The notes below the pieces were generated by a model. It saw only the letters and a list, made by a program, of their open reading frames with translations, did no database searches and was not told the DNA's origin. Below, piece by piece: positions 16,537 through 49,740 of a stretch of DNA of 64,000 nt. The DNA comes from Lytechinus pictus. Lineage: Eukaryota. The position numbers and the translations under genes were made by a program. The DNA lies in contig NC_087245.1 in the NCBI RefSeq assembly GCF_037042905.1, positions 9,302,001 to 9,366,000 of the forward strand, given 5' to 3'. Numbering within the stretch: position 1 is the first letter of the stretch; every line of letters begins with the position of its first letter.

Positions 16537-16847
16537 CATGGGCGGAAATCCCAAGGGGGACGCGTCCCCCCTACTCAAAATAGTAGGGGGGACACAATAT
16601 CAAATGTCCCCCTACTATTTTTGGTCTTTTGTGATGAAAAGAAATACATCATTCAAAATCGGAATAAAACATGTATTTTGGACGAGATAACCTCAATTTT
16701 GGGCTGATAACTTTTTTTTTTGCTTGTCAAATTGGTTTTGGTCGAAATTACCTTATTTTGGGGTGATAACTTTTTTTTTTTTTTTTTTGCTTTTCAATTT
16801 TTCAGCCACTTGTCCCCCCTACCTTTTGGGAGAGATTTCCGCCCCTG
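16537..16847. mobile_element. hAT-like MITE with a perfect 8-bp TSD, inserted in the L2 ORF
   Basis: TIR CATGGGCGGAAATC / GATTTCCGCCCCTG (13/14 match); TSD CTTAACGA at 16529-16536 and 16848-16855; removing the element and one TSD copy restores the RT frame. Confidence 0.92.
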
Positions 16848-17077
16848 CTTAACGATAACGAGATGGAAGTCCCGCATCTATCCTCCCATCGTAGACATAC
16901 CCCTGAGCTACCTCAAATTCAAATTGCAAATGTTCATATACATCCCTCTAAAATGGTTACTAACTTAGGTGTTTTGTTTGACAAAAACCTTTCAATGGGT
17001 CTCCATGTCAACAGCGTCTGTCGTAAGGCATCCTTCGCCCTAAGAAAGATTAGTAAAATTCGTAAATATCTCTCTAA

Positions 17078-17598
17078 GGCTGCGTTTATCCGACCTCAAG
17101 CCAGAATCGTGATTTGAATCATGATTGGAATAATGATTCAAATCACAAACATGAATCACAATTACTACAGAATTAGGGTTTAGACGACCTTCGTTCCAAC
17201 GCTGTTTCTCCTCGGATTCGGACCGATCCAGTGCGCATCACAGTGCGCAGTTTGACCCAGGAAGTATAGGTCAACGTTGGACACTTAATTGGAGGTCGGC
17301 GACGTACATGTGATGTGACAACGTGGGGCGCGCGCCTTGGCAAGAACCGGAAATAGCTCGACACAATGACGTCATATAATCATGATTCAAATCACGATAT
17401 CGTTTATCCGAACATTTTCGTACGTGATTCTGCAGAAACGTCTTTCCAAACGCCCTTTTTTTCGTAGTTCATGTTTGTGATTCTAATCATGATTATATTC
17501 AATTTCGACTAAACGCAATCGTGATTCTGCAGAATCGTGATTTGAATCATGATTGGAATCATGATTATAGGGTAAAAAAGTGGCGGATAAACGCACCC
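17078..17598. mobile_element. PIF/Harbinger-like MITE inserted in the L2 ORF
   Basis: TIR GGCTGCGTTTATCCG / CGGATAAACGCACCC (14/15 match); flanks TAA / ATA (imperfect 3-bp TSD); repeated subterminal AATC(G/A)TGATT motifs; the RT frame resumes after it (YLSK|SSIEVVIHAF). Confidence 0.85.
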
Positions 17599-18234: not shown

Positions 18235-18320
18235 TTATTATTATTATCATTGTTATTATTATCATTATTATTATTATCATTCTTATTATTATTGTTATCA
18301 TTATTTTTATTGTTATTTTT
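18235..18320. repeat. (TTA/TCA)n microsatellite shared by the L2 tail and the SINE tail
   Basis: Imperfect triplet run between the two elements. Confidence 0.9.
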
Positions 18321-18690
18321 GGGCGTCACCTGTGCCTGAGAGGCGAAAAGCGAACTGAATCATTGTGACCCGCAGGTCTCTACTCCCGTATAACTGATTG
18401 GGGGAGTGCAGGTGGACCACTACACCGGGGTTTCCCCCTATTCTTATACGACTAGTGCAGTGGGTTCTTAACGTGCAAAGGTGGTGACTCTCCCCTACTA
18501 GGGGTCTCCATTTAACGTCCTATCCGATGGACGGAGTGTTTTCCACTGTAACACCATAGCCTGCATCTATGGAACAGGGGAGAGACGTTTACGCACAACG
18601 CACTGGCTTCAGTAATCCGCCTGGGTGGACTCGAACCCACGATCTCTGGTTCGACAGGCAGACGCTTTACCTACTGAGCCAACTTCGCTC
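18321..18690 (-). mobile_element. tRNA-derived SINE with a Deu/Nin central domain (DeuSINE type), near full length
   Basis: Minus strand: A-box TGGCTCAGTAGG and B-box GGTTCGAGTCC. The middle CCGTCCATCGGATAGGACGTTAAATGGAG...CACGTTAAGAACCCACTGCAC...TAGGGGGAAACCCCGGTGT resembles the Deu domain as I recall it from SINE3/AmnSINE1. AAT-repeat tail. Confidence 0.88.
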
Positions 18691-47748: not shown

Positions 47749-49420
47749 GCACGCGCGCGCGACGCCGCCTCTCTCCCTCTCAGCATCCACCTTTCACCTT
47801 GTATACTCCTCTTACGCTAACATCTTTCAAAGTTATCACACCCCCTTCTACTTCTCCCTCTCTCTCTCTCTCTCTCTTTCTTTCTTTATTTATTTCTTCC
47901 TTTCCCTATCCCTCTTGTTTGTCCTTTACCCTCTATTTTTCCCACCCTCTCTAGTTCATTTCCATTCGTCACCCCCTCCCCCTCGCTGTCTCTCCTCTTT
48001 CGCCTTGCCCATCTTCTCCGTTCGTCCAATGATCGTCGTCGAACGGCTGAGTGCGATGGTTAGAGTGTGGGTCAAACCGATGTTAGCTAGGGGAGGGAAA
48101 TAGCTTCAGAAACATCGAGATATTTAAAGACTCAGTCTCTTTAACCCATTCCCTACTAGAAGAGAGAACAATAAAAGTTAAAGCATAAAAGGTCAGAACT
48201 TAGTAATGTTAGTGGGTTAACAGTTTACTATAGTTCTGCACAAATAAATCCTAGATGAACATACATTTATTTTATATCTTCGCTCCTGCGGTCCACTCGC
48301 CCGATACAAAGAACATATTTCAGACGCATTTTGATATCTTCTTATTATATAATAACATTGAGATGAATGATTTGATTTGATCAACTGAGCATTTCTTATA
48401 ATATTACAAAGATGAATTAGAATATAATGGGTTTTTTCGATGAATTGTCAATTTATTAGGTCACGAAAATATATCATACATTTTTAAAATCATAATGACA
48501 ACTATTTTTCAATTACAAGATTTTTCTGTAAAAAAATTGTTTATATATATATGTTGGTTTTTTTTTTTGTCTATTCTCTACGTGATTTGGTAAAAGCTCG
48601 AAATATGAAAGATTAAAACTCGAAATAAACACGACCTTGATTTGGCAGATATTTGATACGGAGATACCAAAATAAATGCAAATAAAAACATACTTAAAGT
48701 GATGATCTAAAATTCGGACAGGTCGATGAACTTATGAAATTTATCACATGAGGCTTTTGTCGATGGAAAAGAAGCTTTTACGCCATGAATGAAATACTGC
48801 AACTAGCTTAAAAGGATACTGATGAAAGGAAACACATTTATAATGTTACGGAAGAGATCATTATTTCCGACATGGGTTTCGTTGCACGCCAATTATGATT
48901 ATCCAGTTTACTTATGGTGTGGATTTTGTCACATTTGAAATAATAAGGGAGGTGGTTGCTTTTGAGGGCGTATTGTTGGCTACTAATGGCTAGGAGTGAC
49001 CCCATGGACACACGTCACTCACCCATCGTGCATTAATCAATCGATTAGGAGATTCTATAGAAAAGAAAGCTATTCAATATCACTTTTGTGTAGAAGACAG
49101 CAAGGTGATAACCTTCTACAAACTAACCAGACTGGTGATCGATCTCTGTTTTTTTTTTCCTTTCAGGGAACATTTATCAAGTCACGTTCTGGTAACTTTC
49201 CTTCAACCCTATCCTCCTCTTCAACTCTTTTTTCTTTATTTACTTTCTTTGAAGAAAGGGGTGATTGCAGAGTCCAAGGTCATCGGGGTTGTTCGGGACA
49301 GTACCCTTACCTAGACAAGGGGTGTAGCCAATATTGTCTCGCATCAATGCTCATGTATTCTCTTCTCATCACTCCCTTGATTTTAACGATTTTCTCTCCT
49401 ATGATATATAATTGACTTAA

Positions 49421-49594
49421 GTGTGTGTGTGTGTATTTGAGTTATGTCAGACGTATATCAATCAGATATGAATATTTACGTCTGTAACCGACCTTTAACG
49501 TCACCATCCGAAAGACGTGACCAGGGCTCGAACCTCTGCATCAATTTGTAACTTCCCCACAGCTTGGATTACAGGCGCACGCCACAACGCCCAG
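49421..49594 (-). mobile_element. Short SINE with a 7SL RNA/Alu-like head, B-box, Deu-domain fragment and (CA)n tail
   Basis: Minus strand: CTGGGCGTTGTGGCGTGCGCCTGTAATCCAAGCT (7SL 5' end is GCCGGGCGCGGTGGCGCGTGCCTGTAGTCCCAGCT), GGTTCGAGCCC B-box, CGTCTTTCGGATGGTGACGTTAAA, ends in (AC)7; TTAA(G) on both flanks. Confidence 0.75.
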
Positions 49595-49740
49595 TTAAGA
49601 ACGAAAAGGTGACTTTTAAGAAAAACGATGTGATAAGGAAATGTTCGTGAAAAAGATGTTAAAGTTGTGTGCCCAAACTCGGGGAGCGTAGATAACAGTT
49701 CCCTTTTAATGATAAAAACTTGATTTTCTTTCGTTAATCA

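Follow-up and report, generated by a model that had tools for sequence, protein, structure and literature searches.

Can a short interspersed element (SINE) be founded on a mere fragment of 7SL RNA, the RNA of the signal recognition particle (SRP), and has this happened in an invertebrate? The question is raised by a locus on the minus strand of a 64,000-nucleotide stretch of the Lytechinus pictus genome (contig NC_087245.1, positions 9,302,001 to 9,366,000 of the forward strand; hereafter, the window), where an earlier reading made from the letters alone, here called the sequence-only reading, had described a candidate Alu-like SINE with a 7SL-like head joined to a piece of the Deu domain. 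Alu, which no other human repeat exceeds in abundance, is a 7SL-derived SINE, yet independent origins of such elements are extremely rare. We show here that the element belongs to a family of 7SL-derived SINEs with an unusually short 7SL head, and we consider it very probable that this family is genuine, was recently amplified in an echinoderm and took its head, in an independent event, from the 7SL RNA of its host.

Genome-wide searches covered the host assembly (812 Mb, 368 contigs), and patterns were counted exhaustively on both strands of the whole genome, ungapped and with ≤3 mismatches, the reversed patterns that served as controls giving 0 matches in every count. A 32-nt word from the head occurs 1,348 times (696 forward, 652 reverse), a 32-nt word from the tail 1,656 times (842 and 814), and the 52-nt junction of head and body, in the form typical of the youngest subfamily, to which the window copy belongs, 295 times (158 and 137), of which 99 are exact, so the objection that the element might be single-copy fails. 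The 1,348 heads are a lower bound, since an older subfamily (L038) lacks the extra A in CCAAGCT and needs 4 mismatches. With a 183-nt query, a first look returned 1,688 candidates genome-wide, and all 41 places that were scored are 91-100% identical to it, most of them 96-97%. Copies are spread over more than 20 contigs, with near-equal numbers on the two strands. The 5' end is sharp in 30 inspected copies, falling on the ACTGGG that corresponds to the +1 position of 7SL, and an additional A precedes ACTGGG in 25 of 30 copies other than that of the window. Flanks are unrelated in 27 of the 30 inspected copies, while L011, L012 and L028 have theirs in common and therefore sit in another repeat. 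At 175 nt, the family is thus short, high in copy number, dispersed and defined at its ends, as expected of a SINE.

The head of these copies comes from 7SL RNA. The first 30 nt of the SINE, ACTGGGCGTTGTGGCGTGCGCCTGTAATCC, are identical to those of one host 7SL gene, L037, and the head matches this gene at 42 of 46 aligned columns and another 7SL gene, L031, at 33 of 35. With respect to the other host 7SL genes, the first 30 nt show a single difference, a change of C3 to T that is common to the SINE and L037: six host genes start ACCGGGCGTTGTGGCGTGCGCCTGTAATCCAGCTA, and the seventh, L037, starts ACTGGG...AGCTGCTTTGGAAGT. The change lies in helix 2 of the Alu domain, which reads ACC/GGU in six of the seven genes and ACU/AGU in both L037 and the SINE (U3/A43 versus C3/G), and this shared, paired compensatory change indicates an L037-type RNA as the source. 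On the window, the Rfam model Metazoa_SRP (RF00017) scores 31.1 bits (E = 2.6e-6) in an alignment in which the pairs of helices 2 and 4 are all standard and the mispairs of helix 3 are those of the host's own 7SL, and the head carries host-specific bases that differ from the Rfam consensus. Across the genome, RF00017 scored at 25 places. Full-length 7SL genes account for seven of these, with 272-283 bits, and the remaining 18 stay under the gathering threshold at 31.9-34.9 bits; of these 18, five were retrieved (L038-L042), and each is a copy of the SINE.

These alignments bear directly on the idea that the element is an ordinary SINE2 with a decayed tRNA-derived head, whose likeness to 7SL arose by chance or through a shared A-box-like sequence. 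The element does contain a canonical tRNA-type B box, GGTTCGAGCCC, and tRNA heads are usual among published sea-urchin SINEs, with SINE2-1, -2, -3 and -6_SP all given as SINE2 entries in the portion of the paper available to us (PMC4824008). Nevertheless, we find this origin scarcely credible: the first 30 nt equal those of a host 7SL gene, including host-specific bases that depart from the Rfam consensus; the tRNA models of Rfam give no match on the window at E ≤ 10; ARAGORN finds no tRNA in the 64 kb; and positions 46-72, when examined by eye, do not form an anticodon arm followed by a T arm, since a U falls at position 33 in no register and the T-stem pairs are broken. The resemblance of the head to the 5' end of the 7SL Alu domain, and not to a tRNA, was correctly recognised in the sequence-only reading.

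The alignments also show how much of the element stems from 7SL: they confine the 7SL part to the 5' hairpin domain, which comprises helices 2 to 4 together with the GUAAU turn, and the Alu domain lacks its 3' strand. Past position 46, the body aligned to the rest of 7SL with a score of 15, which equals the shuffle mean and was reached by 539 and 518 of 1,000 shuffles for the two genes compared; a 7SL origin of the B box and body was rejected on this ground. The family therefore has the 7SL-derived head of a SINE1 element without the two 7SL ends that remain after a central deletion and without the whole Alu domain. Neither is it a 7SL retropseudogene of the P7SL type, having only 45 nt of 7SL, a chimeric body that is uniform among copies and no poly(A).

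Two further observations concern 7SL-like sequence. Older SINE copies, 80-87% identical, end about 33 nt upstream of three tandem 7SL genes (C10, ~7.91-7.92 Mb), namely at positions 1289-1466 and 876-1049 of L031, 1293-1467 of L035 and 1314-1467 of L036; their (AC)n tail adjoins a conserved upstream motif, ATATTTCCTTAATTTCGC, and they are probably one insertion duplicated along with the gene. In the window, the Rfam family mir-1268 scores below threshold at 49547-49597 on the minus strand (26.1 bits against a gathering value of 83, E = 0.014), and the segment is not a microRNA; we take mir-1268 to be Alu-derived itself, so this match would merely reflect 7SL-like sequence.

A head of 7SL origin in many copies need not imply a self-propagating SINE, because a LINE (long interspersed element) reverse transcriptase that switches from SINE RNA to 7SL RNA could have produced many independent chimeric retrocopies, in the manner of U6-L1 chimeras. 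Kojima 2020 (PMC7245038), in the part available, accepts that chimeras can form when the template switches to a small RNA, and one such switch is proposed below for the founding of the family too. Independent switches, however, should leave varied breakpoints, and instead 295 copies have the same 52-nt junction within 3 mismatches. Another 60 matches to the junction are off register, and all 30 that were inspected proved to be indel variants or truncations of the normal junction, among them indels and duplications of GGTTCGA, truncations and insertions of another transposon. Moreover, the subfamilies form a series of diagnostic changes inside the 7SL-derived loop, from AGCTACGTGGGG through AGCTATGTGGGG to AGCTGTGGGG, in which AGCTACGTGGGG is nearest to the AGCTAC of the 7SL genes and the helices and the GUAAU turn stay constant. 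Since these loop changes are missing in 7SL genes, the copying was done from SINE masters and not from 7SL genes. The common junction, the loop series and the constancy of the helices and turn argue for one founding chimera followed by master-copy evolution, and leave repeated retrocopying highly improbable.

Some SINE copies have also been carried along by duplications or larger repeats. Four lie ~2.53 kb apart on C1 (~22.737-22.744 Mb), five lie 2,385 bp apart on C15 (~24.317-24.327 Mb), and nine plus-strand copies with the same A-to-G variant occupy 0.056-0.441 Mb of C10, within its first 450 kb; these regularly spaced copies are tandem or segmental duplications carrying a SINE. A dimeric, Alu-like subfamily was considered for the tandem pairs L039, L041 and L042 and rejected: their flanks are identical to those of the single-copy L040, so that the pairs lie in a larger repeat, which holds SINE monomers or tandem pairs at several loci on contigs C18, C5, C2, C4 and C7. 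L065, L076 and L082 each carry, at CGTCTWTCGG of the SINE body, an insertion of yet another repeat (...GTCGGATAAAACGTCCGACAAGTCCTTTCATGAAACGCTCCCC...), which occurs in both orientations and is possibly a transposon that prefers this sequence as its target.

With the head assigned to 7SL, the body remains to be explained. The sequence-only reading had likened the middle of the element to the 5' part of the Deu domain, and the likeness holds over a short distance. Within the window, 20 of 24 aligned columns agree between the Deu-like segment and a second element (minus strand, 18321-18690); the local alignment scores 26, compared with 15.6 ± 2.2 for shuffles, 5 of 2,000 of which attained 26. The Deu domain of hagfish SINEs and AmnSINE1 is printed in supplementary Fig. 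S4 of Kojima 2020 (PMC7245038); compared by eye with the AmnSINE1 row of that figure, CGTCTTTCGGAT is identical at 12 of 12 positions, and the agreement extends through GACGT.AAA and GGTCC, amounting to about 31 of 43 columns. What is present corresponds to about the first 40 nt only, the second half of the domain being absent, while the available text of PMC4824008 gives ~330 nt for the Deu domain in vertebrates and 70-120 nt for minimal Deu (Nin) cores. The head, too, sets the family apart from DeuSINEs with tRNA- or 5S-derived heads, as it is 7SL-derived.

The element at 18321-18690, which the same reading had reported along with the shared motif, is indeed there. It is a tRNA-headed SINE with an (AAT)n-like tail in 18250-18320 on the minus strand, and ARAGORN calls no tRNA at its head. 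Its body matches, by eye, both halves of the Deu domain as drawn in Fig. S4 (CCGTCCATCGGATAGGACGTTAAA ... ACGTTAAGAACCCAC ... AAGAATAGGGGG..CCCCGGTGT) and for this reason we class it as a full DeuSINE.

A match of this length invites a different account of the body, in which the family is real and 7SL-headed but its Deu-like piece is convergent or LINE-derived, the head having been joined directly to a body and tail that come from a LINE. The ~40 nt of the match fall short of even the minimal Deu cores, no tRNA-headed family with this fragment was found in the assembly, SINE bodies can come from LINE untranslated regions (PMC5786205, in the part available), and the match leads directly into the arm of the stem-loop on which recognition by a LINE would depend. 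By contrast, the 12-mer CGTCTTTCGGAT and GACGT(T/A)AAA...GGTCC keep the order and spacing of the published Deu start, the score against the window's full DeuSINE is one that so few shuffles attain, and no LINE with this sequence was found either. We judge a LINE-derived body to be unlikely, while granting it appreciable weight.

The 3' part of the element has a marked structure of its own. The tail stem-loop of the family consensus folds at -13.0 kcal/mol, compared with -3.1 ± 2.0 kcal/mol for 300 shuffles (z = -5.0). A near-identical loop, TAAATATTCATATCTGAATGA, occurs in another short repeat, found as two copies with unrelated upstream sequence in L023 (minus strand), whose hairpin GGCGTAAATATTCATATCTGAATGAYACGCGCC is followed by YTAAAAYC and (AAC)n; its stem reads GGCG/CGCC where the SINE has GACG/CGTC, a compensatory change. 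Such near-identity of the loop combined with a compensatory stem suggests that the related hairpins form a class of LINE recognition hairpins, and the L023 repeat may be a heavily 5'-truncated LINE end related to the partner of the SINE. A text search of the literature for the motif GACGTTAAA together with SINE returned nothing relevant.

Signs of retroposition are found at a number of copies. Target duplications measure 13 nt at L038, 9-12 nt at L056, L068 and L071, and 12 nt around the 5'-truncated L075; target duplications and 5' truncation, as seen among SINEs, are thus both present in the family. A repeat of ≥5 nt anchored at the boundaries was found in 6 of 30 young copies, against 3.2% of 870 mismatched flank pairs, while an unanchored test for duplications gave no signal (mean longest common substring 4.9 versus 4.5). 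Given the general traits of these clades, a partner of the CR1, L2 or RTE type accounts better than L1 for duplications that are short or lacking, for the 5'-truncated copies and for a tail made of a microsatellite.

On these grounds, we propose the following life cycle. RNA polymerase III (Pol III) would start at the 7SL +1 position or one base earlier, using the box A that comes from 7SL and a foreign B box 57 nt downstream, and, as the element has no internal TTTT, its transcripts would extend into flanking DNA. A stringent (sequence-specific) LINE of the CR1/L2/RTE kind would recognise the 3' stem-loop together with (AC)n through its reverse transcriptase and would insert copies by target-primed reverse transcription, a mode that would explain why target duplications are short or lacking and why some copies are 5'-truncated. 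In addition, the hairpin domain taken from 7SL may be bound by SRP9/14 and may deliver the RNA to ribosomes, a role that has been suggested for Alu. In a search of sequencing runs, sampled words appeared in 21 rows from 8 studies, all of one organism except for one seawater metatranscriptome (a small share), and contigs of the runs that we guessed to be RNA held about half of the sampled words, which does not show a Pol III transcript.

The family would have originated as a single chimera of an L037-type 7SL RNA and a Deu-type SINE, either by a template switch from Deu-type SINE RNA to 7SL RNA or by insertion or recombination at a 7SL locus, with master-copy amplification following the founding event. 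This origin is modelled on the 5S-headed DeuSINEs, thought to have arisen by template switching from a SINE to a small RNA (PMC4824008), and on the hagfish model of Kojima 2020 (PMC7245038), each as presented in the parts available to us. The swap of heads on a DeuSINE body put forward in the sequence-only reading is in keeping with the 7SL head and the Deu-like piece; since no tRNA-headed parent was found, we retain the swap as a proposal. More tentatively, although we think it quite possible, the 45-nt 5' hairpin domain of 7SL, which includes the SRP9/14-binding turn, may suffice as a SINE head when combined with a borrowed tRNA-type B box, leaving the whole Alu domain unneeded.

Several results weigh against a recently amplified, 7SL-headed family on a Deu-type body. 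The 28 sampled members of the youngest subfamily have a mean identity of 98.7% to their consensus, a figure that is biased upward because the best-matching copies were picked and the same copies built the consensus. The thermodynamic fold of the 48-nt head is not 7SL-like and is no stabler than that of shuffles (z = +0.7), a test of 7SL fold and shuffles that real 7SL 5' ends likewise fail. The Deu match of ~40 nt comes from one alignment within the window and a by-eye comparison with a figure. Half of the youngest copies (15 of 30) are without a target duplication of ≥3 nt. A tRNA-headed parent with the same B box or Deu fragment was not found among 60 pattern matches, 30 of them inspected, nor did a further search with 37 matches, judged from the matched strings only, reveal an alternative head; the matches consisted only of truncations, indels and another transposon inserted at CGTCTWTCGG.

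To these must be added the failure to find a partner LINE with exhaustive genome patterns that required the tail and forbade the upstream bases of the SINE itself. The first tail pattern had 14 matches, all 14 of which are deletion variants or 5'-truncated copies of the SINE, and the second had 13, all SINE indel variants as judged from the matched strings. The last 22 nt, allowing ≤1 mismatch, gave 0 matches genome-wide with non-SINE sequence upstream. A pattern for the loop motif matched 158 times in the genome, and among the 100 matches listed there were only SINE A-to-G variants and one short repeat; likewise, at 0 of 18 sites outside SINE copies in 331 kb of host sequence was an (AC)6+ run accompanied by a related tail. 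No multi-copy element of the assembly shares even the last 22 nt of the tail, so that a 3' end held in common with a partner LINE was not seen in the assembly, and the partner may be absent from it or may recognise structure rather than sequence. Because tails exceed heads by only ~300, no large LINE population stands behind the tail count.

Within the window, a 115-amino-acid open frame containing LGVLFDKNLSMGLHVNSVCRKASFALRKISKIRKYL lies at 16770-17117 on the plus strand and resembles the C-terminal portion of a LINE reverse transcriptase. BLAST with the SINE consensus finds nothing at 16770-17117, and a protein search with a LINE reverse transcriptase fragment gave no usable taxon.

The window copy displays the anatomy of the 7SL-headed family in full (Table 1), and over 172 nt it shares 97.1% identity with the consensus built from 30 other copies. 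Every minus-strand feature described for it beforehand is present, from the start ACTGGGCGTTGTGGCGTGCGCCTGTAATCCAAGCT and the B box about 60 nt in to CGTCTTTCGGATGGTGACGTTAAA, the unique tail and (AC)7, and only the limits needed correction: the element had been placed at 49417..49599, its true ends are 49421-49595, and the extra bases belong to a CTTAA direct repeat, the two copies of which overlap the element ends by one base per side. The head reads ACTGGGCGTTGTGGCGTGCGCCTGTAATCCAAGCTGTGGGGAAGT from 49595 downward and is followed by the 16-nt linker, part of which is missing in the older variants L048 and L049. The B box GGTTCGAGCCC agrees with what we take to be the B-box consensus, GGTTCGANNCC, and is directly followed by CTGGTCA and then by CGTCTTTCGGATGGTGACGTTAAAGGTCGG, while ACATAACTCAAAT represents the 13-nt spacer region between the stem-loop and (AC)7. 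A small Pol III RNA head and internal A and B boxes are therefore present at the sequence level. The position of GGCGTTGTGG equals that of box A, GGCGCGGTGG, as given for human 7SL in the accessible part of Kojima 2020 (PMC7245038), and we regard it as a putative promoter element.

Table 1. Parts of the SINE copy in the window (window coordinates)
Feature	Position	Strand	Remarks
Whole SINE copy	49421..49595	-	175 nt, ACTGGG through the end of (AC)7
Start ACTGGGCGTTGTGGCGTGCGCCTGTAATCCAAGCT	from 49595	-	read on the window sequence
7SL-derived head, element positions 1-45	49551..49595	-	helices 2, 3 and 4 and GUAAU turn, 5' part of the Alu domain
GGCGTTGTGG, counterpart of 7SL/Alu box A, putative promoter element	49582..49591	-	element positions 5-14
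Linker TACAAATTGATGCAGA, 16 nt	49535..49550	-	no significant match to the remaining 7SL
tRNA-type B box GGTTCGAGCCC	49524..49534	-	element positions 62-72; not 7SL-derived
Deu-like segment GTCACGTCTTTCGGATGGTGACGTTAAAGGTCGGT..CAGAC	49479..49521	-	matches the window DeuSINE and the AmnSINE1 row
CGTCTTTCGGATGGTGACGTTAAA	from 49517	-	read on the window sequence
3' stem-loop, arms CAGACGT/ACGTCTG and inner stem	49448..49484	-	from folding of the family consensus
Terminal microsatellite (AC)7	49421..49434	-	run length variable among 30 copies
Direct repeat CTTAA, 5 nt	3' copy 49417..49421, 5' copy 49599-49595	-	short target-site duplication

As to the host, a bindin gene was found on C13 (14344741-14346105, plus strand), where the Pfam family Bindin (PF02084) matches in two adjacent exon-like segments with 53.1 and 236.7 bits, and the same family had no match in 14 control genomes. 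Bindin is an echinoderm sperm protein, best known in sea urchins, so this gene places the host among the echinoderms and probably among the echinoids.

An echinoderm family extends 7SL SINEs to the invertebrates and adds a 7SL case to the head-replacement route proposed for 5S-headed DeuSINEs. The shared 5' and 3' architecture of the known 7SL SINEs has been interpreted to mean that amplification depends on the entire Alu-domain fold, and the present family, having reached more than 1,000 copies with only a 45-nt 5' domain and a foreign B box, serves as a natural test of which 7SL segment is important. If our interpretation is true, this would be the first invertebrate 7SL-derived SINE and the fourth independent origin; a closed Alu domain and the recurrent ~183-nt deletion, which for Alu, B1, Urop and the hagfish element have been held to be functionally indispensable, would not be required; and the 5' domain alone would be what is selected, as a promoter or as an SRP9/14 handle. 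In practical terms, the family belongs in repeat libraries, since its 7SL-like head may otherwise be mis-masked as Alu contamination or as SRP RNA.

Among DeuSINEs, the closest parallel is with the 5S-headed members (SINE3, AmnSINE1), in which a Pol III head not derived from a tRNA likewise precedes a tRNA-type remnant and a Deu body. The urchin head is 7SL and not 5S, and its Deu stretch of ~40 nt contrasts with the vertebrate length given above. Whereas the 5S-headed elements keep a partial tRNA, the tRNA leftover in the urchin family is the B box at most. The distance between its A and B boxes is similar to that in Alu, about 55-60 nt. Unlike Tu type II of the tree shrew, which is built of whole monomers of both the 7SL and the tRNA kind and belongs to Euarchontoglires, the urchin SINE has just 45 nt of 7SL fused with a single B box. 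The two are nonetheless alike in holding 7SL- and tRNA-derived promoter material within one SINE, as the available part of Vassetzky et al. 2026 mentions for Tu type II (PMC13023118).

Other 7SL SINEs have been described in few lineages. The list in the sequence-only reading, Euarchontoglires and hagfish, was one short, because Vassetzky et al. 2026 (PMC13023118) report Urop from a shrew mole and, in the part accessible to us, otherwise name only supraprimates and hagfish; its implication that echinoderms are missing agrees with the literature on 7SL SINEs in sea urchins and echinoderms, whose titles and abstract starts mention no such element, an entry in a repeat library being possible. According to the same partly available source, all 7SL SINEs arose after a central deletion of ~183 nt that joined the 5' and 3' ends of 7SL. 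With Alu, B1, Tu and Urop, as characterised there, the urchin family shares a 7SL-derived head with the 5' terminal hairpins, the GUAAU turn and the position of box A. It differs from all four in having no 3' 7SL part and in ending with a stem-loop and (AC)n in place of the poly(A) that goes with L1, and, unlike the dimers of Alu and Urop, its tandem pairs belong to a larger repeat.

The hagfish element SINE1-1_EBu (Ebu1-1), the first clear SINE1 outside Euarchontoglires according to Kojima 2020 (PMC7245038), offers a close comparison, within what the available part of that paper covers. Both families have an independent, non-mammalian origin from the 7SL of their own host, both are young chimeras with older SINE or LINE parts, both end in a microsatellite and not in poly(A), (AAC)n in the hagfish and (AC)n in the urchin, and their copy numbers are similar (2,363 full-length Ebu1-1 copies versus 1,348 urchin heads). 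Ebu1-1 has an RTE partner, whereas none was found for the urchin SINE in the assembly, and both promoter boxes of Ebu1-1 are 7SL-derived, whereas the B box of the urchin SINE is of the tRNA type. Above all, the hagfish element keeps 96 nt from the 5' end of 7SL and 44 nt from the 3' end, and with them the whole Alu domain, in contrast to the 45 nt, with no 3' part, of the urchin family. In the accounts available to us, every described 7SL SINE keeps both ends of 7SL, while the urchin family keeps only the 5' hairpin domain.

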